A DNA stretch of 64,000 bases from IMG/VR virus record IMGVR_UViG_3300020391_000004, positions 32,001 through 96,000 of that record, one strand, 5' to 3'. The position numbers and the translations under genes were made by a program. This stretch comes from a virus. Shown piece by piece: positions 27,446 through 59,726 of the stretch (its first letter is position 1; every line of letters begins with the position of its first letter). The notes below the pieces were generated by a model, which was not told the origin of the DNA, made no database searches, and saw nothing but the letters and a program-made list of their open reading frames with translations.

Positions 27446-29143
27446 ATGAAGATACCCAAAGATGCGAAGGCTCAATTAGAACGATTACTCGGCAGATTCA
27501 TAAGGCATATTCCGAACAATACTGAATATCATAACAGGCTTATCGAAGAACTAGAGATCATACTCAGACTTCGTTTCGTCGATTACTTCCTAACAATTTG
27601 CGATGTACTGGCGCTAACCAAAGACATAACACATATGACTCGTGGTTCAGCAGGGTCTAGTCTCGTCTGCTACCTACTTGGTATAACAGACGTGGATCCC
27701 ATAAGATGGCAAATACCGGTAGCACGTTTCCTAAATCCTTTAAGGGATGACTTACCAGATGTAGATATAGACTTTCCACACTGGCAACAGGATGCCGTTA
27801 TGCAAAAAATATTTGCTAAATGGCCCGGAAAAAGTGCTCGTATCAGCAACTATGTAACTTATAAAGAAAAGAGTGCAAGGCGTGAAGCCGCACGACGTCT
27901 AGGTGCATCTGGTAAACTTCCCCGTGGCTTTAAATACGAAGATTTAGATATAGACAAGGAAGAAGCAATGAGAATCGAACGAAAATTATTAGGCAAAAAA
28001 AGAGCAATATCAAAACACTGTGGAGGAGTTCTTATATTCAAACACAACATGCCAAAAAGCCTAATAAATGCAGACAATCAAATATTATTAGACAAACGTG
28101 AAGTAGAAGACTTGGAGCATCTTAAAATAGATATCCTTGCTAACCGAGGACTTAGTCAACTGTTAGAAATAGATGCAGACACACCTCTAGAAGCATACCC
28201 AGAAGAAGATTACGAAACAAGTAAATTATTGTGTAGCGGAAATGTAATAGGAGTAACACAAGCAGAATCTCCTGCTATGAGAAGATTATTCCAAGCAATA
28301 CAACCAAAAGGAAAAAGCGACTGTGTATTTGCTACGGCACTAATAAGACCAGTAGCAACTACAGGTAGACAGAAAGCCAGTTTCTTTCAAGACTGGACAG
28401 AACAAAAATTAGAAGATACTATTGTATACGAAGATGATGCAATTAAAAAAATATCAAAACTTATAGGTTGCGACATGTACGAAGCAGACATGTACCGTCG
28501 TGCTTTTGCAAGTCGTGACGAAGAGAAAGTTATGCAGTTCATGGAGAAGATGGGCGACAGTGAAAACAAAGAAGAGATTATAAAAGAACTTTATGGACTA
28601 GGAAACTTTGGACTATGCAGAGCTCATGCAGTAAATTTAGGCAGACTAATTTGGGCATTAGCATATCAGAAAGCACACAATCCAAAACAGTTTTGGAAGG
28701 CGGCACTTAAACATTGTCAAGGAAGTTATAGACGTTGGGTACATAAAACAGAAGCAAAGAATGTAGGATGGGATTTACGTGAACTAGGATATCCAAATGG
28801 TATCACAGAGTCACCACAACAACAATATAAACGTTATGGTTATTGGACACAACCAGAGTTTATGCCAAATATGTTTATACAAGAAACCTGGGGAGATAGA
28901 GTAAACTTTGCAGGACTTGTTGCTAACGGAAGAGTATTCAAAGGCGAACAAGGGAGATACGTTACATTCTTAACATTAGGTATTGCTAACGGTGAATACG
29001 TTGACGTAACTGTTAAGAAACCTTTTGGACATAGAGACCACGATGTTGTAGTAGGCAGTGGGAAGGTGCGTTATAGTAACGGTGCTCGTTATATAGATTG
29101 TTATGATGCTAAAGGTCATAGGCTACATCAGTATCTAAATTAG
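27446..29143 (+). CDS. dnaE: PHP-less DNA polymerase III alpha-like protein (565 aa)
   Basis: RGSAGSSLVCYLLGIT.VDP, PDVDIDF, HCGG, LKIDIL, ALIRP, HA, C-terminal OB-like fold; no N-terminal PHP domain. Confidence 0.85.
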   Translation: MKIPKDAKAQLERLLGRFIRHIPNNTEYHNRLIEELEIILRLRFVDYFLTICDVLALTKDITHMTRGSAGSSLVCYLLGITDVDPIRWQIPVARFLNPLRDDLPDVDIDFPHWQQDAVMQKIFAKWPGKSARISNYVTYKEKSARREAARRLGASGKLPRGFKYEDLDIDKEEAMRIERKLLGKKRAISKHCGGVLIFKHNMPKSLINADNQILLDKREVEDLEHLKIDILANRGLSQLLEIDADTPLEAYPEEDYETSKLLCSGNVIGVTQAESPAMRRLFQAIQPKGKSDCVFATALIRPVATTGRQKASFFQDWTEQKLEDTIVYEDDAIKKISKLIGCDMYEADMYRRAFASRDEEKVMQFMEKMGDSENKEEIIKELYGLGNFGLCRAHAVNLGRLIWALAYQKAHNPKQFWKAALKHCQGSYRRWVHKTEAKNVGWDLRELGYPNGITESPQQQYKRYGYWTQPEFMPNMFIQETWGDRVNFAGLVANGRVFKGEQGRYVTFLTLGIANGEYVDVTVKKPFGHRDHDVVVGSGKVRYSNGARYIDCYDAKGHRLHQYLN

Positions 29144-30541
29144 TTATTCGCTTTTTAATCCTGCTAACATATCTTTTAATTTACTACTTTGTACACTTGC
29201 AGTAATTTTTTGTGTTTCACCTTGTGGTGCTTCAACAACTCCAGTATTAGTTTTATTTTTTAGTTGATCATAGATACTACTAGTTTGTTTCTTAAACTGT
29301 TGATATTCTTGATCTTCGCCCAAGTCACGGATACGTAAACTTTCTACATCAAACTCTAAGTCTATCTTTTGTCCGACTCCACTACTACTTCTAGTCTTCA
29401 TAAGTTGTAACTGATACCTGCCACGTTCTCTCATTGCACGACTTGTAAATATACCAAACACATTGTCTGCAGTATTAATCTTACTAAGTCCTCCGCTGAT
29501 ATGCGAATGATCAAACTCTATCTCATCTACTGCACCTCTATTCAACTGCGATGCAGTAACAAATACACAGTTTAATTCTTTTGCTAGGTTACGTAATTCT
29601 TCCGATACATACTTGTCCTTAACAAATAAATCACTTGGCGATACTTTTGCACTAACTGGCATAAGCAGATCTAAATAATCTATAAGCAGGAAGTCTATAG
29701 TCCAACCATTCTTTATTTGTAACTCTTTCAAATATGCTCTAATATCATTTACGTTACTTTGTGCAGGCATATATTTTATTTGTAAGTTGCCTGCCTTTTT
29801 ACCAGCCATCTTAACTTTCATTTCTACTGTATCTAAGTCTTTGAATACTTCTTTAGTAGATACATTTGTAAGCATACTATCTATTCTCATAGCACTTAGT
29901 CCTTCACTAAGTTCTAGTGTCAAGTACACTCCGTTTAATCCGTTTGTTACCCAATTCACTGCTAAGTTCTGCATAAACAAACTTTTACCACTGCCGGATC
30001 CACCAGCAAATATATTCAGTTCACCTTTATTCATACCACCAAACAGTTTACGATCCATTGCGGGCCAACCTGTAGTAATTTGTCCATTATTATCTTTCAA
30101 TGCCATAAGTCTGCCTTTAGGATCTAAGAAATAATCTGTTCCCATATCTTTTGTTAGACTAATTTGTACTGCATCTTTTATAAGTTTCTCAACCGGATCA
30201 TATGTTCCTTTTTCTAATAAGTCTGCCGCCTTAAGTATTGCACGTTCTAGTTCTTGTCGCTTTGTAAATCCCTCAAACTCTGCTAGGAACCAATCATTAT
30301 GACTTTCATGTATATCTGGTACAGGCTTTAGTTCTACACCTGTCACTGCCTTTACTTGTTCATACGTAGGCAATGCACCATGTTCGTCACTATGTGTCTT
30401 TATAAACTCTGCAGTATCATACAAACTCCTATCAAAGTTATCAATGTTGTAAATGTTCTGCACACGAACATAATTCTGTGCATCATTCATCATCATTTCT
30501 AAAAATAGTTTTTGTAAATCTTTTGTATATTCTTTAGCCAT
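29144..30541 (-). CDS. Replicative DnaB/T4 gp41-like helicase
   Basis: GELNIFAGGSGSGKS, LTLELSE, IDYLDL, TASQLNR, KTRSS; start MAKEY (TAATG overlap). Confidence 0.92.
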   Translation of the reverse strand: MAKEYTKDLQKLFLEMMMNDAQNYVRVQNIYNIDNFDRSLYDTAEFIKTHSDEHGALPTYEQVKAVTGVELKPVPDIHESHNDWFLAEFEGFTKRQELERAILKAADLLEKGTYDPVEKLIKDAVQISLTKDMGTDYFLDPKGRLMALKDNNGQITTGWPAMDRKLFGGMNKGELNIFAGGSGSGKSLFMQNLAVNWVTNGLNGVYLTLELSEGLSAMRIDSMLTNVSTKEVFKDLDTVEMKVKMAGKKAGNLQIKYMPAQSNVNDIRAYLKELQIKNGWTIDFLLIDYLDLLMPVSAKVSPSDLFVKDKYVSEELRNLAKELNCVFVTASQLNRGAVDEIEFDHSHISGGLSKINTADNVFGIFTSRAMRERGRYQLQLMKTRSSSGVGQKIDLEFDVESLRIRDLGEDQEYQQFKKQTSSIYDQLKNKTNTGVVEAPQGETQKITASVQSSKLKDMLAGLKSE

Positions 30542-31422
30542 TAACACTTCCCACAATTAAACACACAATAGTCTGGCTTACTATCTTGTATTGTAGCATA
30601 AAAATTATGAAAACGCCTAATACAATCTGTAAGACTGTTGTCCTTTATTGTTAATTTATTCTTCCACCATTCACTTTTATACCAAAAAGAATAATTTTTA
30701 GTATAACAACAAGGTGCATAAAATCCATCTGCACTAATGTAATGACTTTTGCCATCAGCACATTCTGGATCTATTTCAAAGTTTTTAATATTACTTGTCA
30801 TATATTTTTGTTGTACTTCGTCTCTAGGACCTATATAATTTTCTTTTGGTCGTAGATAGTCGTCTATCTCATATCTGTCACTCGGATCTAATTTAAAATT
30901 ATCAATACCTAACTTTTTACTTAAACTTTTCGCTTCTTCTATGTCATTCTCATTAAAGGAAAAAGGAATATATTTCCATGTTGTTTCAACTTTACTTTTC
31001 ACACAAATATCTATACCTGTTTTAATACTGTCCCAATCGCCATTTATTCTATACTTTGTAAAATTATCAGGTGTACCATCAATACTAAAGTCTATTTTAT
31101 CATTATCATCTAATATAGAAACAAGTTTTTCCCACCATATTTTATTTTTTCTACTTGCATTTGTAGTAATAGTCACTGATTTGCATAATCCTTTAGATAC
31201 CTCTACTAATGCTAAAAAGTTTTTATGATATATTGGATCTCCTAAGTTTCCACAGAAGTTTATATGATCGACTTTATCATCAATAAAATTTTTAAAATCG
31301 TTTATGTTTAAATCATTAATTGAAAAATTATTTTTTCCAAACTTATCTATAAAAGTTGTTCGTTCGCATCTTGGACATGCCAGTGTGCATCTACTAGTAG
31401 CCTCAACATGTAAGCCTACCAT
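30541..31422 (-). CDS. Radical SAM protein with auxiliary Cys domain, between primase and helicase
   Basis: CTLACPRC, FCGNLGDP, TTN, PCCY...C..NCG. Confidence 0.85.
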   Translation of the reverse strand: MVGLHVEATSRCTLACPRCERTTFIDKFGKNNFSINDLNINDFKNFIDDKVDHINFCGNLGDPIYHKNFLALVEVSKGLCKSVTITTNASRKNKIWWEKLVSILDDNDKIDFSIDGTPDNFTKYRINGDWDSIKTGIDICVKSKVETTWKYIPFSFNENDIEEAKSLSKKLGIDNFKLDPSDRYEIDDYLRPKENYIGPRDEVQQKYMTSNIKNFEIDPECADGKSHYISADGFYAPCCYTKNYSFWYKSEWWKNKLTIKDNSLTDCIRRFHNFYATIQDSKPDYCVFNCGKC

Positions 31423-32369
31423 CTTTTTCTCTGCAAATTTATTTTAAGACTCATAGTCTGTTTTGCATCTAAAATACTTTTAAGTGTGAACAGTTTACCA
31501 TATCTTACTACTGCATCATTTACATCTTTAACATCTGGCTCCCACTCAGGAAAACTTACACTCCAACCAAACTCTAATGCATCATCAATAAGTCTTTGTC
31601 CAGCCTTATCTTTATCTGGAACTAGTATCACTTCTCTACCTAGTGTATCTATAATCTGTGCTTGTGTCTCACTACAACGGTTGTTCATTATTCCTATGCC
31701 ACCTATACATATAGCATCTAATAATCCTTCAGTTACAATTATAAACCTACTGTTAGGCAACTGATTATCAATGCCATAAACGAAACCACTATCATGACTA
31801 GTAAAATATTTGGGTTTGGTGTCATTATCTACACTCCTTGCACTAAATCCTATTGTACGTCTACCCCACTTGAATGGAATAATTATTCTTTTATGCATGC
31901 CAGCTGCTTTACTATCACTGTACATAATTTTTTCTAATGGCAATGCCCTACTTTCTGCATATAGTCTTATATGTTCAGGCAATTCGTTTGTACTATTATC
32001 AGGCAACTTTCTACTTTTAAAATCTACTTCAAACTTTTCTTCTTCTACTTGTTCCTGTACTGTATCTTTTATTCTTAATGCTTCTATATTCAGCATCTGT
32101 CTAGTATTCTCATCAACACCTAACCAAGTTAATAACTTACGTAACTTGAAACTAATATGTCTGCCTGGTTGCCACCCTGTTTTAAAATTACAATTAAAAC
32201 AATGATAACTTACTGCTTCACCATTTGTAATTACTCCGCCTCTACTGCGTTTGTCCTGACTCTCACCATTATGATGACAACAGACGGCGTTAAAACTAAC
32301 CCATCCATTAGTAGTTCTCTTTTGTTTGCCAGGCAAACTATCTATTATTGTTTGTTGAATACTATTCAA
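31416..32369 (-). CDS. DNA primase (T4 gp61-like)
   Basis: Zn ribbon CC.H...HCFNC; TOPRIM TEGLLDA and PDKDKAG. Confidence 0.9.
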   Translation of the reverse strand: MNSIQQTIIDSLPGKQKRTTNGWVSFNAVCCHHNGESQDKRSRGGVITNGEAVSYHCFNCNFKTGWQPGRHISFKLRKLLTWLGVDENTRQMLNIEALRIKDTVQEQVEEEKFEVDFKSRKLPDNSTNELPEHIRLYAESRALPLEKIMYSDSKAAGMHKRIIIPFKWGRRTIGFSARSVDNDTKPKYFTSHDSGFVYGIDNQLPNSRFIIVTEGLLDAICIGGIGIMNNRCSETQAQIIDTLGREVILVPDKDKAGQRLIDDALEFGWSVSFPEWEPDVKDVNDAVVRYGKLFTLKSILDAKQTMSLKINLQRKRW

Positions 32370-32909: not shown

Positions 32910-33683
32910 TTATCCTTTGAACATATTGTCCATATTGTGGCTTAGATACTGAAATTTTTCTGCGAACCTATTGTCTGTACCACCACCTCTTACTGCTGCA
33001 ATATGCTGCATAGTATTTACTACTTCCAAGTATTTTATTTTTTTATCACGCTTTGTGTTATCCAAAAAACTTTTACACCATTCATTTTTTGAATTTTGAA
33101 AAATATCAATACCAAGATAAGAATTAGGTGAAAATGTTTTTTTGTCATAACACCAGTTACTATTTGTGTATCTAGGAGATTCATAAAGGACTATACTATT
33201 TTTATAAGATCTTAATGCTGATAAACATGCCTGATTTACAAGTTTATGATCTCCATGATAATCGCTACTAGGCACTAGCACCATATCATAGTGTTTATTA
33301 GGTTCATTTTTAGGTGCATGAACTTCTTCAACTATCCTTTTTATTATGTCTTGTATTTGAGTATCGCCTCTGCTTGAAAGTCTTCTTATATAAGTTGGAC
33401 TATAGTCTTTACTAATATTTTCATTAAGCCAATTTGTATTGTAGAATTTTCCATCTGGGCATTGTAAAAACTTGTAATTGTATCCGTATTTTTTTGAATT
33501 AGCGTCAATTACCTCATGATTTTCTTTAACACAATAAAGTATATCTACACGCCATTGATTAGCCAATAACTTTAATATTAAGCCGCCGGCTCCTTCATTA
33601 ATATCATCGCAGTGAGGACTTATTGCCAGTATCCTACCACGTTTGTTATGTTTCCTACCACAACAATTTTCTGTTTCAATCAT
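32910..33683 (-). CDS. PIG-L/LmbE family N-acetylsugar deacetylase
   Basis: AISPHCDDINEGAGG and DYHGDH metal motifs, AEKF near the C-terminus; start probably MIETEN. Confidence 0.8.
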   Translation of the reverse strand: MIETENCCGRKHNKRGRILAISPHCDDINEGAGGLILKLLANQWRVDILYCVKENHEVIDANSKKYGYNYKFLQCPDGKFYNTNWLNENISKDYSPTYIRRLSSRGDTQIQDIIKRIVEEVHAPKNEPNKHYDMVLVPSSDYHGDHKLVNQACLSALRSYKNSIVLYESPRYTNSNWCYDKKTFSPNSYLGIDIFQNSKNEWCKSFLDNTKRDKKIKYLEVVNTMQHIAAVRGGGTDNRFAEKFQYLSHNMDNMFKG

Positions 33684-33741
33684 TTTGTTAATCCCCTTTT
33701 CATAAAACAGTTGCATTTCTACCACAGAAATGTTTTTATAA

Positions 33742-35177: not shown

Positions 35178-35549
35178 ATGCCACCATTAGCAGAAGAAAT
35201 ATTTGAAAAATATCCGTTTTTAAGTCTAGTGACCTACGGTGGGCAAGAATATGTAGGAATCATACAAAATCAGGATGACGCTTTTTTAAGTATGTATGAT
35301 TATAGTAGACTAGATACTATATTGAAACCAAAATTTTTAGAACTAGGTGAAAGTTGGTGGTGGGAATCGAATAGGACAATTCCTATAAATTTGTTTTTAA
35401 AGAAAGATTTTAACGAATTTAGTAAATACTTAATAACATTTAACATAAAAGATACCGAAGTTGTAAAGGGTCCTAGTGTCAGTATTGCTGACCTAGCGAA
35501 AAAAAGAAGTAAGCGTCGAAATATTCAACTGGTAAAAAAAGTAAAGTAG
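35178..35549 (+). CDS. Hypothetical protein
   Basis: YPFLSLVTYG..EYVGII...WWWESNR.IPINLFL. Confidence 0.65.
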   Translation: MPPLAEEIFEKYPFLSLVTYGGQEYVGIIQNQDDAFLSMYDYSRLDTILKPKFLELGESWWWESNRTIPINLFLKKDFNEFSKYLITFNIKDTEVVKGPSVSIADLAKKRSKRRNIQLVKKVK

Positions 35550-35921: not shown

Positions 35922-36141
35922 TAATTTCAAAGCCAGGATATTCTTCATCTAAGGTATCAATTACATGACCTAACATATTTTGAATTTCTTCATCTGTCAT
36001 CATTTTTTTATATAAAACTATTGAATGTTTTAATAACATTGTTGCCATATACAAAGGATCATCAGAATCTTTTATTTGCGAATCAATATGTTTCACTAGA
36101 CCTTCTTGTATCTGTGACATCCTTTTAAGATTACTTTTCAT
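35893..36141 (-). CDS. Hypothetical protein
   Basis: 82-aa ORF coupled to the mini-DnaE. Confidence 0.5.
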   Translation of the reverse strand: MKSNLKRMSQIQEGLVKHIDSQIKDSDDPLYMATMLLKHSIVLYKKMMTDEEIQNMLGHVIDTLDEEYPGFEITTTTKKTLH

Positions 36142-36703
36142 TTTGTTTCCTTAGTATGTTCATATGCACTACAACCAATTGTGCATAAGCTACTGCGTGT
36201 GCTTTCTTAAAACTATAACTATCTAATCCTGCTTTATCCCAAATAGTTTCTGCAACTTCACGCCATGTTTTTCCTATTAAGTGTCTTTTTGCAGGACGTA
36301 TGACTGCTAAAAACATCGCCATCCTTGGTATACTTGTTATATCTTCTGGCATTCTTGCCATAGTTTCAAAGTGTTTACCAACATGAATTAGTTGTTCAAA
36401 AAAATCTCTATCATGTAGCGTTGTCCAATCGGGCTCAGCCATCATTTCTATCAGATGTATTTCATTTTTTATGTGTTGATACACACCTACATTAAGTAAG
36501 TCTAGTTTAAAATATCCTAGTTGTTCTGCAGTCTTATGATCAATTGTTGCAAGTCCATCGTGTGCTATAGGAACTTTATTGAAGTAAACACCAGTATTAT
36601 GTTTGTTCCCATTTTCTAGTCTAGCACCTACACCTTTAATATGTCTTAGTAAATGTGTTCTATCAGCAAAGTCTATATCTACGTCCGGCATACTAAATGT
36701 CAT
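36131..36703 (-). CDS. Minimal DnaE-like (C-family polymerase palm) protein, 190 aa
   Basis: PDVDIDF, KHNTGVYF, GYFKLDLL, AVIRPA, FKKAHAVAY in canonical DnaE order. Confidence 0.8.
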   Translation of the reverse strand: MTFSMPDVDIDFADRTHLLRHIKGVGARLENGNKHNTGVYFNKVPIAHDGLATIDHKTAEQLGYFKLDLLNVGVYQHIKNEIHLIEMMAEPDWTTLHDRDFFEQLIHVGKHFETMARMPEDITSIPRMAMFLAVIRPAKRHLIGKTWREVAETIWDKAGLDSYSFKKAHAVAYAQLVVVHMNILRKQNEK

Positions 36704-37538
36704 AGCGTTTTCCCGCCCATGCTTGTGTAGGTTTGTAGTCTGCTATGTTTGTTGGGTAATACTGCCAATTTTCTATCTCATATCCTAAATATTTTTCAAT
36801 TAAATTGTCTAAGTATCCTTGCTGATACACACAAAAATTACTAATGTTAAGAGGTATATTATTAATATAACATATAAATGCATACTGTACAAGTTCTTTT
36901 GATTGCAATATTTTCTTTTTATTTTTTATAAAGTCTTCCCACTTTTTGTCTAAGCCAACACTGTATTCATATCCTAGATTCTTTAAACACAATTTACATT
37001 CTAGTAAGAATTTTTCTTTATTGTAAAACCATCCAAATTTAAAAATTCTTTGTATATCTTTATTTTTTGCATGTTCATTATGTTTCATTAAAAGACCGTT
37101 ATTTGGTCTGTGCATAAGTTTAAAAAATTCACGCATACCAGTCAGACCATCATTTTGAAAAACTTCTGCTTGTTTAAATATATTGCCAAGTGGTTTACTA
37201 TCACTACTTTCCCCTTTGAAGCTAATTTTATCTTTGAAGTCCCATAAATTTTTAAAACTATTAATTTTTAACAAATCTAAACCAAACTCGCCACCAGCAT
37301 AAAATAAGTGCCACATCAAAATATGTAGATCGTCTACATTAGCTTCAATATTACACCATATATCATTTTCTTCGCAACTATGAACATGATCTACAATTTT
37401 GTTGAAATTTCCATTAGCATGAGCACCTTTTTTATCCGCATAAAAATTAAAGTCTTGTTGTACTCCAGATGCTACACTAAGACTTCTAGACAAAAAATTT
37501 CCATGTGACCCAGCTGGAAATAACAACTTAGGTAACAT
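36693..37538 (-). CDS. P-loop/sulfotransferase-like protein, paralog 2
   Basis: FPAGSHGNFLSRSL; start probably MLPKL. Confidence 0.35.
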   Translation of the reverse strand: MLPKLLFPAGSHGNFLSRSLSVASGVQQDFNFYADKKGAHANGNFNKIVDHVHSCEENDIWCNIEANVDDLHILMWHLFYAGGEFGLDLLKINSFKNLWDFKDKISFKGESSDSKPLGNIFKQAEVFQNDGLTGMREFFKLMHRPNNGLLMKHNEHAKNKDIQRIFKFGWFYNKEKFLLECKLCLKNLGYEYSVGLDKKWEDFIKNKKKILQSKELVQYAFICYINNIPLNISNFCVYQQGYLDNLIEKYLGYEIENWQYYPTNIADYKPTQAWAGKRYDI

Positions 37539-38217
37539 TACTAATTGCCTCCCGTAATTTATTCTTAGGCACATTAATATGGCGTTTATCGCAAACTTTT
37601 TCTATAACACACGTGTCACATTTAGGATTTCTACTTTTACAAATCCTTTTTGCATGTGTAATTAGTTGCATATGAGCCGCATACTTATATCTATCAGGAG
37701 TAGAATTATTTACAAGCACTGCACTTTTGCCTTCGTCTAAAGTGTCAGTCCAACCTAGTCTCCATAATAATCTGAACACATGAGTATCAACTGCAATGTG
37801 AGGCTGATTAAAAACAAAACGCATTACAATATCACTACTTTTTCTGCCTACGCCAGGAAGTTTCATTAGTTCTTTTTGTGTTTGAGGCACAACGCCATTG
37901 TATTGTTCAATTAATATTTTACTAGTCGCTAATATATTTTTTGACTTTGCGTTATATAAACCTGCAGGCTTTATTGCTTCTATAATATCTTCCTGTGTCA
38001 ATTTAATCATATCCCAAGCATTATCTGCTAAAGAAAATAGTTGTCTACACGCTACTGCAGTTCTTGCATCTTGACTTTGTGCTGATAACATTACACCAAT
38101 AAGACTAGTGTATGCATGTTTATGTATTTTAGCATCTGGTTTTTTATTCCTATACTTAGGCCAATAACTACTTAATTGTTCATATATGAAATCAATTTGT
38201 TCTTTATTTTTCATCAT
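37528..38217 (-). CDS. nth: Endonuclease III (HhH-GPD DNA glycosylase with 4Fe-4S)
   Basis: LSAQSQD, LPGVGRKS, AVDTHVFR, C-x6-C-x2-C-x5-C. Confidence 0.92.
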   Translation of the reverse strand: MMKNKEQIDFIYEQLSSYWPKYRNKKPDAKIHKHAYTSLIGVMLSAQSQDARTAVACRQLFSLADNAWDMIKLTQEDIIEAIKPAGLYNAKSKNILATSKILIEQYNGVVPQTQKELMKLPGVGRKSSDIVMRFVFNQPHIAVDTHVFRLLWRLGWTDTLDEGKSAVLVNNSTPDRYKYAAHMQLITHAKRICKSRNPKCDTCVIEKVCDKRHINVPKNKLREAISNVT

Positions 38218-38224
38218 AGTCCCG

Positions 38225-39112
38225 TCATTTAACTTTCCCTAAAATTTGTAAATCATTTATTGCTAGTTTGTCTACATTTTGAGGCGATACTGCTAGTACC
38301 ATACCATAGCCACCATTAAAAATAGTTAAAAATTCTCGCATATTCATTTTATCTTGGCACTTAAAATATAAGTCAGACCACCATCCCTCTCTTTTAAAAT
38401 TAAGTCCATTGTCCAAAGTTACTTCTAAAGTGTGTTCTCTACCTTTTAACATTCTTGGAATATTCTCAATAAGACCACCACCAGTAATATGTGATACACC
38501 GTTAATGAACTGGTGGTTATTTAATATTTCATTTGTGTAAATTCTTGTGGGCGTAAGTGGTATTTCATTGAGTGGTAATATTTTTCTTAACATACTGAAC
38601 CCATTTGAATGTGGGCCACTTGAGGGGATACCGACAAGAATATCACCTTCTTGTACAATTCTAGGAAAATGTCTATCCACTACAGTACCTACCACGAACC
38701 CAGCAAGATCAAACTTTGATCCTTCATAAACTCCAGGCATCTCGGCAGTTTCACCACCCATAAGAGTACAACCAGCAAGTTCACAACCTTTTAATATTCC
38801 ATTAAGTATTTCTTTTGATTTATCTAGACATATTTCTCCTGTTGCATAATAATCAAGAAATCCTATAGGTTGTGCAAATTTACATAGGATATCGTTTACA
38901 CACATTGCTACAAGATCAATACCTATAGTATCAAACTTATCATGACCTTCTGCTACTAAAATCTTTGTACCAACTCCGTCTGTGGATATTACAACTTCCT
39001 CTCCACCAATCATTATAGAAGCACCGAAATCTTTGAATCCAAGATATTTTGCTATCTTATTTCCTTTTTCAATATTCACTCCAGCATCAGAATATGCGTT
39101 CGTTTTCATCAT
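38225..39112 (-). CDS. purM: Phosphoribosylformylglycinamidine cyclo-ligase (AIR synthase)
   Basis: Y..AGVNI, TDGVGTK, AMCVND, GGETAEMPG, HSNGFS, HITGGGL; start MMKTN. Confidence 0.93.
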   Translation of the reverse strand: MMKTNAYSDAGVNIEKGNKIAKYLGFKDFGASIMIGGEEVVISTDGVGTKILVAEGHDKFDTIGIDLVAMCVNDILCKFAQPIGFLDYYATGEICLDKSKEILNGILKGCELAGCTLMGGETAEMPGVYEGSKFDLAGFVVGTVVDRHFPRIVQEGDILVGIPSSGPHSNGFSMLRKILPLNEIPLTPTRIYTNEILNNHQFINGVSHITGGGLIENIPRMLKGREHTLEVTLDNGLNFKREGWWSDLYFKCQDKMNMREFLTIFNGGYGMVLAVSPQNVDKLAINDLQILGKVK

Positions 39113-39792
39113 AGCCCTGCTTCTTTTAAAATGTGTTTTACCCATTCAGTATCTGCAAAGTAATCTACAAATTTACGTTTCCAAAAATCTGGATCAATAT
39201 ATGGAAATACCATTTCTATTTGTTCAGTACTTAGTTTGTTCAATGCATCTTGTCCGCTAGTACAATTATAAATTATCCAACTACTAATACGACCTGTAGT
39301 GATATCTTTAACAAGAACATTGCTACTAACATAATAAAAATAATGATTAAATATACTTTCCTTTTGTTCCGCCCATGCTTCCATAGTTTTTATACTGCGT
39401 TCTAATGCATCTTGTGTTGCTTCTGTACGTAAATGTTCAAACAAGTATTCTTGATATACAATATCTTTTGTCCAATAGTCTAGTTTCTTATTTTTTGCTA
39501 TAACCCAGTCAATAAATTTTTGTGTATTGATAGCACGAATGTTTACCATATGTCTGCCAAACTTTACAAATGCATTGTAGTATGGACTTGTACTAAAGTC
39601 AGTATATGTTTTAAACTTAGCACTGCCTTGTGTAAGTTCATAAAATCGGAGATAAGCAGTCATGCCTAATTTGACCCCGGGCTCATGTTCTTGCTGAGCA
39701 CGACGCTTAGGTTCGCAAAGGTGGGCAGCAAGTGTAGACTCCTTGCGAAACTCCTTGCCACAGTATTGGCATTTGTAATCTTTTGTTTCCAT
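39109..39792 (-). CDS. Hypothetical protein with N-terminal Zn-finger
   Basis: C-x2-C...H.C (CQYCGKEFRKESTLAAHLC). Confidence 0.6.
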   Translation of the reverse strand: METKDYKCQYCGKEFRKESTLAAHLCEPKRRAQQEHEPGVKLGMTAYLRFYELTQGSAKFKTYTDFSTSPYYNAFVKFGRHMVNIRAINTQKFIDWVIAKNKKLDYWTKDIVYQEYLFEHLRTEATQDALERSIKTMEAWAEQKESIFNHYFYYVSSNVLVKDITTGRISSWIIYNCTSGQDALNKLSTEQIEMVFPYIDPDFWKRKFVDYFADTEWVKHILKEAGL

Positions 39793-59207: not shown

Positions 59208-59726
59208 TTATACTCCTAGTTGTTTATAACACCATTGTAAACATCGTGCTTGGTGATGAGCATCTGCTAATGCATTATGTGCCGCCACTTTGGGTATTGC
59301 ATTTACTGGATCTGTTGGCATCATTTTAAATACTGTTCTACTGTCACGTAAGTTCCAAAAGTTCCACGGCTTATTAACACCAGATTGTAGATAAAGATTT
59401 TCTATAATAGTCATATCAAAACCATATCCTTGTCCCCATATTTGTTCGCACCCAACAATAAATTTATTTAATTTATTAATTGCGTCTGCAACAGGAGTCC
59501 TATTGTGTTCTCCCATTGCTTCATCCTGTATCTTTTGGGGTTGTGTTGCCCACCATGCAACTGTTCCGTCATCTACAGTTCTACCTAGAGCGATTTGTTC
59601 ATCCACATCTAGTCTAATATATAATTCATCAACTATGCTTGTTCTGTTAAACTTAACCGCACCTACTGTTAGCACTACTGCACTAGGACTAGTATCTAAT
59701 GTTTCTAAATCTATCATACAATCCAT
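59208..59726 (-). CDS. DEDDh 3'-5' exonuclease (DexA/Rv2179c-like)
   Basis: MIDLET, GYGFD, RDSRT, HNALADA. Confidence 0.85.
   Translation of the reverse strand: MDCMIDLETLDTSPSAVVLTVGAVKFNRTSIVDELYIRLDVDEQIALGRTVDDGTVAWWATQPQKIQDEAMGEHNRTPVADAINKLNKFIVGCEQIWGQGYGFDMTIIENLYLQSGVNKPWNFWNLRDSRTVFKMMPTDPVNAIPKVAAHNALADAHHQARCLQWCYKQLGV

Follow-up and report, generated by a model that had tools for sequence, protein, structure and literature searches.

A split minimal Pol III alpha has been described, on the basis of sequence data, in the group 2.2 jumbo phages by Iyer, Anantharaman, Krishnan, Burroughs and Aravind (2021, Viruses 13:63; PMC7824862), who name PA5oct, RaK2/GAP32 and Atu_ph07 as phages carrying it. 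These authors propose that two proteins reconstitute an enzyme which acts beside a family B polymerase, and they state that other Pol III domains are lacking in the phages which carry the split form. The two proteins correspond to the PHROG families phrog_11778, here termed the C-unit, and phrog_11127, termed the N-unit. In the literature searched no biochemical data were found for any member of the split mini Pol III alpha, and the omics paper on PA5oct makes no statement on the split polymerase genes.

The window, i.e. the whole stretch of 64,000 nucleotides that was analysed, represents bases 32001-96000 of a 131.6-kb virus contig (CheckV completeness 38%) from an uncultured marine jumbo-phage lineage with 33% GC. 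It carries a gene for a protein of 190 aa which, judging from sequence comparison and structure modelling, is very probably one half, namely the catalytic and metal-binding one, of a minimal Pol III alpha made of two chains. The initial annotation had presented this gene as new; this kind of enzyme was, as outlined above, already published in 2021, and its architecture is not new with the window.

The C-unit gene, its conservation and its fold

The gene under study is the following:

36131..36703, minus strand: C-unit, 190 aa, with the catalytic residues D7, D9 and D68 and the finger motifs IRP (135-137) and FKKAH (165-169)

The translation contains, in the order in which they occur in DnaE, the motifs PDVDIDF (6-12), KHNTG (34-38) and GYFKLDLL (63-70), followed by the finger motifs AVIRP (133-137) and FKKAHAVAY (165-173). 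The presence of these motifs and of all three catalytic aspartates within 190 aa, on which the initial annotation was built, is confirmed. In an alignment of 39 homologs of 53-88% identity D7, D9, D11, R15, H35, G38, K66 and D68, as well as R136, P137, K139, F165, H169 and Y173, are invariant. The gap from the DxD to KHNTG measures only about 22 residues in the C-unit, in contrast to about 85 in a second, 565-aa DnaE encoded in the window, and the thumb position is occupied by only about 22 residues. The gene overlaps by 11 nt both with its upstream and with its downstream neighbour and is thus placed inside an operon-like run of minus-strand genes. No RNA holder is listed for the C-unit locus.

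The C-unit gene is under strong purifying selection. All 80 C-unit homologs from IMG/VR are intact with a length of 169-201 aa (79 of them 185-201 aa), and dN/dS according to Nei-Gojobori is 0.065-0.08 against the eight nearest relatives, with a median of 0.12 over 535 pairs having a dS of 0.05-1.5. The gene is kept in phages of Pseudomonas, Enterobacteria, Agrobacterium and Sinorhizobium, and more than 7,900 metagenome protein clusters of about 190 aa, with 346 representatives at 50% identity, belong to it. A different view would make the ORF a decaying remnant of a full-length DnaE, redundant beside the 565-aa DnaE; its length of only one sixth of a cellular DnaE and the complete DnaE gene 7 kb away would fit this view, to which we nevertheless give practically no credence, since the intact homologs and the low dN/dS (about 0.07 for the nearest relatives) refute it and the conservation in phages of such different hosts speaks against it as well. 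The gene had been annotated as functional, with frameshifts, variable length or unconserved aspartates named as possible signs of decay, and with dN/dS across homologs proposed as a check; the homologs bear out the annotation on all these points.

Comparison with the PHROG families gives a match of the C-unit to phrog_11778 ('DNA polymerase', 197 positions) with an E value of 2.6e-50 and 180 of 190 residues covered. The long DnaE family phrog_405 is matched as well (E 1.4e-6), its positions 773-809 out of 1190 corresponding to the 36 C-terminal residues of the C-unit, and the N-unit matches the same family in a collinear manner at positions 365-429. The Pfam search with the C-unit gave no domain, its sole match being a spurious Myb (E 0.12), phmmer against PDB gave a chance match to fermitin only, and hhalign of the C-unit family against the single 565-aa DnaE sequence was uninformative (probability 3.6%, DxD motif misplaced). 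When the C-unit family profile is compared to PDB, Taq Pol III alpha ranks first with a non-significant whole-sequence E value of 1.2, the match being made of three collinear pieces at the catalytic and finger motifs, namely MPDIDTDF (461-468), residues 612-622 (K616-M-D618, with LLKMDFLGL ending at 622) and YGFNKSHAAAY (810-824). As the E value of the profile against Taq is only 1.2, the significance of the homology rests on PHROG, VIA-align and Foldseek.

The AlphaFold2 model of the C-unit, built on the alignment, has a pLDDT of 92.1 and a pTM of 0.82. The best eight Foldseek matches of this model in PDB are all Pol III alpha (top E 5.9e-3). In VIA-align 187 of the 190 residues are superimposed on residues 457-838 of Taq 3e0d_A (Z 9.4, rmsd 3.7), the twelve top ranks are all taken by C-family polymerases and the entry after them is unrelated (Z 3.6); the ranges matched in the other polymerases are 416-808 in DnaE1 of M. 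tuberculosis, 396-781 in E. coli and 966-1301 in PolC. The 190 residues cover a range of 382 residues of Taq Pol III alpha, from which it follows that the C-unit is the part of DnaE which begins with the DxD strand and ends with the FNKSH helix, minus the thumb and much of the fingers.

Domains absent from the split pair as a whole are PHP, thumb, full fingers, HhH, beta-binding and OB, and Pfam shows the palm only. For the C-unit the absence of PHP, the RGS segment, HhH and OB had been recognised from the beginning, and the thumb has to be added to this list. Since the chain begins at the DxD strand, it is without the RGS-bearing first half of the Pol-beta-like nucleotidyltransferase fold. 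The designation of the gene as an intact catalytic core, or minimal polymerase, was overstated in this respect: it has the three aspartates and the finger motifs, without the nucleotide-binding half. In the Taq ternary complex the DnaE counterparts of K66, R136 and the RGS loop contact the incoming dNTP; the Taq residues are K616, R767 and G425/S426, for which we assume the roles in dNTP contact given in the structure papers of 2006-2008.

The N-unit and its relation to the C-unit

Cultured jumbo phages, when queried with the larger DnaE of the window, show small ORFs which stop exactly where the C-unit begins. The N-unit of Paride (PA5oct-like) has 169 aa and the C-terminus ...WGVGRGSSVASYVLFLIGVHKVDSLKYNLDIKEFLK, that of Phosso has 177 aa, and GAP32 also has such a small ORF; the N-units of these cultured phages match PF07733 only at positions 19-94. 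Out of 120 IMG/VR loci picked by a WGVGRGSSV DNA pattern, 117 contain a separate gene for an N-unit, with a product of about 150-220 aa which in nearly all cases stops right after (D/E)(F/Y)(L/F/I/M)(K/R), and WGxGRGSSV is invariant in 37 N-units.

On the 131-kb contig itself there is no separate N-unit, neither tblastn nor an HMM of 5 sequences (filters off) having detected anything but the 565-aa DnaE, and there are no homologs of the immediate N-unit neighbours of the relatives. Synteny with the 260-kb relative G001 shows that the N-unit block of the latter (228-249 kb) is not represented on the contig, and one gene of this block has a homolog just past the contig start. None of the 120 IMG/VR loci matching the N-unit pattern comes from the source lineage (best flank identity 73%), and the exact look-up with a 383-aa protein from the contig end gave no match. 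The outward walk beyond the contig via exact-protein look-ups led to TARA scaffold_52, which overlaps contig bases 1-12393 (12.4 kb) at 99.96% nucleotide identity; at the opposite contig end TARA scaffold_2 of ERZ2779894, with a length of 292,868 nt, overlaps at 100% identity. The relevant genes of TARA scaffold_52 are:

L267:19197-19715, same strand as the C-unit: N-unit, 172 aa (PF07733; phrog_11127, E 3.9e-46)
L267:19750-20391: proline-rich 213-aa protein (phrog_14844), the gene after the N-unit
L267:20401-20585: Cpn10/GroES, after the 213-aa gene

The N-unit lies 15.3 kb beyond the contig start and about 84 kb downstream of the C-unit, a linkage established by an overlapping near-identical scaffold, not by one assembled molecule. 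Its C-terminus is ...WGVGRGSSVASYVLYLIGIHKIDSLYYDLDIDEFLR (...DIDEFLR*; also given as ...VVWGVGRGSSVASYVLYLIGIHKIDSLYYDLDIDEFLR), while the C-unit begins MTFSMPDVDIDF. It is identified as the partner because of this C-terminal sequence, the phrog_11127 match and the 213-aa and Cpn10/GroES genes next to it; the trio is the same in Paride and Phosso. No split-intein halves are present at the junction of N-unit and C-unit, where the N-unit stops and the C-unit starts on DnaE-homologous residues; nearly all of the 117 other N-units end likewise. The initial annotation had suggested half of a split polymerase with an RGS-bearing partner outside the window, and a search for a separate ORF with the GRGS motif. 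Such an ORF does exist both beyond the contig and in relatives, and the true partner is indeed located outside the window; what had been overlooked is that the window holds an RGS-bearing protein too, the 565-aa DnaE.

The two units occur together. They are found in 96 (C-unit) and 103 (N-unit) phage records, with equal tallies for Escherichia (34 and 34), Pseudomonas (11 and 11), Erwinia (8 and 8) and Salmonella (8 and 8), both are carried by the long contigs G001 and G002, and the N-unit, like the C-unit, has more than 7,900 metagenome protein clusters. A natural fusion is also known from a metagenome:

L272:1066-2193: fusion P0286, 375 aa, on a single 2.4-kb metagenome contig

This protein consists of an N-unit, a linker of about 8 residues and a C-unit, with 35% identity to the N-unit of the source phage through residue 180 and 39% identity to its C-unit from residue 187. 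No other fusion is present among the family representatives listed (150 of the 346 at 50% identity), and looking for longer, fused proteins related to the C-unit, which is a weak test, gave none.

Docking of N-unit and C-unit gave an ipSAE of 0.91 in each of three runs, with at least 95% contact agreement and a partner pLDDT of at least 84, and 0.01 in the best control. In the benchmark the mark of 0.91 is attained by 58 of 80 solved complexes and by 2 of 110 mismatched pairs. The contacts bring residues 6-13 of the C-unit (DxD strand) against residues 133-146 of the N-unit (strand and RGS loop), and the pLDDT of the C-unit falls to 58-59 when it is co-folded with unrelated control partners. 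Co-folding with the predicted partner had been proposed at the outset, and its outcome agrees with the two-chain reading, but as contiguous DnaE structures are solved, the pass may reflect likeness to these and is not proof of binding. The GS motif and the three acidic metal ligands of a Pol-beta-like palm are present only in trans, the former in the RGS of the N-unit and the latter in the Asp triad of the C-unit. As there are no surplus residues at the junction in either chain, assembly, if any, would be non-covalent.

These data also bear on the earlier suggestion that the C-unit could be a stand-alone nucleotidyl or base-exchange enzyme, to which a terminal transferase may be added; it would then work with its three aspartates and finger motifs only. 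The residues in question, including the dNTP-contacting K66 and R136, are indeed all in one chain, and the C-unit model is confident by itself (pLDDT 92). The chain is, on the other side, without the GS-motif half which defines Pol-beta-like nucleotidyltransferases, a dedicated partner gene is present in the source phage and in every well-sampled relative, both halves occur fused in P0286, and the low pLDDT of the C-unit beside unrelated docking partners does not speak for an independent enzyme. A stand-alone activity is most unlikely in our opinion, and the suggestion finds no support.

Gene neighbourhood and the unsplit DnaE

The C-unit locus shows the replication setting of a T4-like jumbo phage, with DnaB, primase and a conserved gene order. 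The order C-unit, small opposite-strand gene, primase and DnaB is conserved. In the window the genes concerned, together with those discussed below, are:

35178..35549, plus strand: opposite-strand neighbour, function unassigned, 123 aa (phrog_11637, E 1.8e-33)
31416..32369, minus strand: DNA primase (phrog_47, E 4.5e-38; synteny)
29144..30556, minus strand: DnaB-like replicative helicase (phrog_19, E 4.6e-68; synteny)
27446..29143, plus strand: unsplit PHP-less DnaE, 565 aa, with the motifs RGS, PDVDIDF, KIDIL, IRP and RAHAV
59208..59726, minus strand: Rv2179c-like DEDD 3'-5' exonuclease, 172 aa (PF16473, E 5.1e-38)
30541-31422, 32910-33725, 37528-38217 and 38225-39145, all minus strand: four genes interspersed among the replication genes

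The 123-aa gene lies close downstream of the C-unit, a position which is kept in Paride (PA5oct-like), GAP32, Phosso and the G001 and P0043 contigs, and its product has 49% identity to that of G001 202991-203368. The four interspersed genes encode a radical SAM protein, a PIG-L-type deacetylase, an endonuclease III-like HhH-GPD glycosylase and a PurM-like AIR synthase.

The gene for the 565-aa DnaE adjoins the DnaB gene, with which it is convergent, at a distance of 7 kb from the C-unit. The protein matches PF07733 (6.4e-43) and the finger domain PF17657 (8.5e-14) and combines the RGS half, a thumb-length insert, the finger domain and a C-terminal extension in a single chain. As a partner for the C-unit it was considered and rejected, being a complete separate enzyme with its own motifs. 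The similarity of the two proteins is marginal (BLASTP E 0.02), which indicates that they are not recent duplicates. Across the marine clade the 565-aa DnaE is 87-97% identical and syntenic, and the C-units of this clade are 62-88% identical to that of the window. G001 and G002 contain the split pair and no 565-aa DnaE, and a 575-aa homolog of the latter is found in the 484-kb uncultured phage LR756508.1 (47379-49016), which has PolB and no split units; this separate occurrence shows that the unsplit DnaE and the split pair are independent, co-occurring modules.

As the source phage already has a complete DnaE of 565 aa, it is not evident why it should need another C-family enzyme, and this counts against the two-chain reading. 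The split pair, or the C-unit, could instead be catalytically silent and serve as a structural or regulatory part of the replisome, e.g. as a partner of the 565-aa DnaE, DnaB or primase. Such a role would agree with the extreme domain loss (no thumb, PHP, OB or clamp-binding module), with the conserved order of C-unit, primase and DnaB and with the full polymerases which are co-resident, namely the 565-aa DnaE in the source phage and PolB in Paride and GAP32. It is very unlikely all the same: the residues which bind the metals or contact the dNTP do not vary in either half, even between very divergent phages, as one would not expect if the protein were purely structural, the similarity of the C-unit to the 565-aa DnaE does not exceed that to other DnaEs, and relatives without the 565-aa gene retain both units.

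On the marine or environmental contigs G000, G001 (260 kb) and G002, which are 38-74% complete, no match was found for family B (PF00136, PF03104) or family A polymerase; the same PolB searches succeed in Paride, GAP32 and LR756508.1, whose genomes are complete. At least 10 IMG/VR loci (e.g. L137, L169, L211, L241, L167) have a homolog of the DEDD exonuclease at a distance of about 1 kb from the N-unit, and in G001 one is found 0.9 kb upstream of the C-unit (L130:5927-6493). Since these homologs adjoin either half in relatives, the exonuclease is a candidate proofreader, and its possible action in trans on the split polymerase is to be taken as a lead only, drawn from gene position. From the failure to detect a family B or A polymerase on the 131-260 kb contigs one could go further and propose that the marine clade runs two family-C polymerases in one T4-like replisome, dividing the work between them, with the DEDD exonuclease proofreading in trans; we regard this as unlikely. 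In Firmicutes PolC and DnaE divide the work, either as leading versus lagging strand or by primer hand-off, and if the clade truly lacks PolB, the unsplit DnaE and the split pair could share work in the same way.

Proposed mechanism and comparison with known systems

In the two-chain reading, which we prefer, the C-unit would supply the beta-strands carrying the metal-binding D7, D9 and D68 together with a reduced finger module (IRP, FKKAH), the DnaE counterpart of which touches both the template and the incoming dNTP. The 172-aa N-unit would supply the missing first half of the Pol-beta-like nucleotidyltransferase fold. The chains would associate non-covalently, without an intein, and in the predicted complex the DxD strand would pair with the strand leading into the RGS loop, so that one active site would be rebuilt from two proteins. 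We infer the heterodimer, its polymerase activity and the role of the split pair from the conservation, gene content and models described above. If the two-chain reading holds, the assembled pair is probably an active template-dependent DNA polymerase; template-directed synthesis by the split enzyme, to judge from its residues, is plausible despite the missing thumb and clamp-binding module, though not assured. As there is no thumb, clamp-binding or proofreading domain, short-patch or accessory synthesis is favoured over a function as main replicase, and the assembled enzyme would most likely be an accessory polymerase of low processivity, active alongside other polymerases in gap filling, repair or the synthesis of one strand.

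With bacterial Pol III alpha/DnaE and PolC (Taq 2hpi/3e0d, E. coli 2hqa/5fku, M. tuberculosis DnaE1 5lew) the split pair shares the palm strands with DxD and K-x-D and, in the C-unit, the finger motifs RP and (F/Y)xKSH. The bacterial enzymes are single chains of about 1,100-1,400 aa, whereas the split pair is made of two chains of 172 and 190 aa, without PHP, thumb, distal fingers, HhH, beta-clamp-binding and OB, and the identity is 13-20%. The split mini Pol III alpha is the smallest known version of the bacterial replicative polymerase core, with an active site predicted to be formed from two chains; if active, it would define the minimum for family-C catalysis and offer a compact two-piece polymerase scaffold.

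The PHP-less phage DnaE of about 565-575 aa is likewise a reduced family-C polymerase of large phages with the same catalytic motifs, but it is, unlike the split pair, a single chain with the RGS half, a finger domain and a C-terminal extension. The cyanobacterial intein-split DnaE, in which DnaE-n and DnaE-c undergo trans-splicing, resembles the phage pair in that a DnaE derives from two distant genes; it differs in the split site, and there are no intein halves in the phage pair.

The closest system is the split Pol III alpha of the group 2.2 jumbo phages. In common with it, the present pair derives from two genes far apart which encode small proteins, one N-terminal and NTP-binding, the other C-terminal and binding Mg2+ and template. 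The split point is identical, PHP, beta-binding and OB domains are lacking in both cases, the C-unit is near primase and DnaB, and GroES follows the N-unit. The C-unit of the window has 39-45% identity to those of PA5oct, GAP32, Atu_ph07 and Phosso. Unlike the group 2.2 phages as published, the source phage belongs to an uncultured marine lineage of 33% GC. On its 131-kb contig, which covers only about 38% of the genome, no family B polymerase was found. At variance with the statement of Iyer et al., which describes the phages and does not define the protein family, it has in addition an unsplit, PHP-less DnaE of 565 aa with a finger domain. What the locus in the window adds to the published system is that the partner can sit about 84 kb away, off the contig, and that throughout a marine clade strong selection maintains the split enzyme although a complete small DnaE is also present, which argues for different jobs of the two enzymes.
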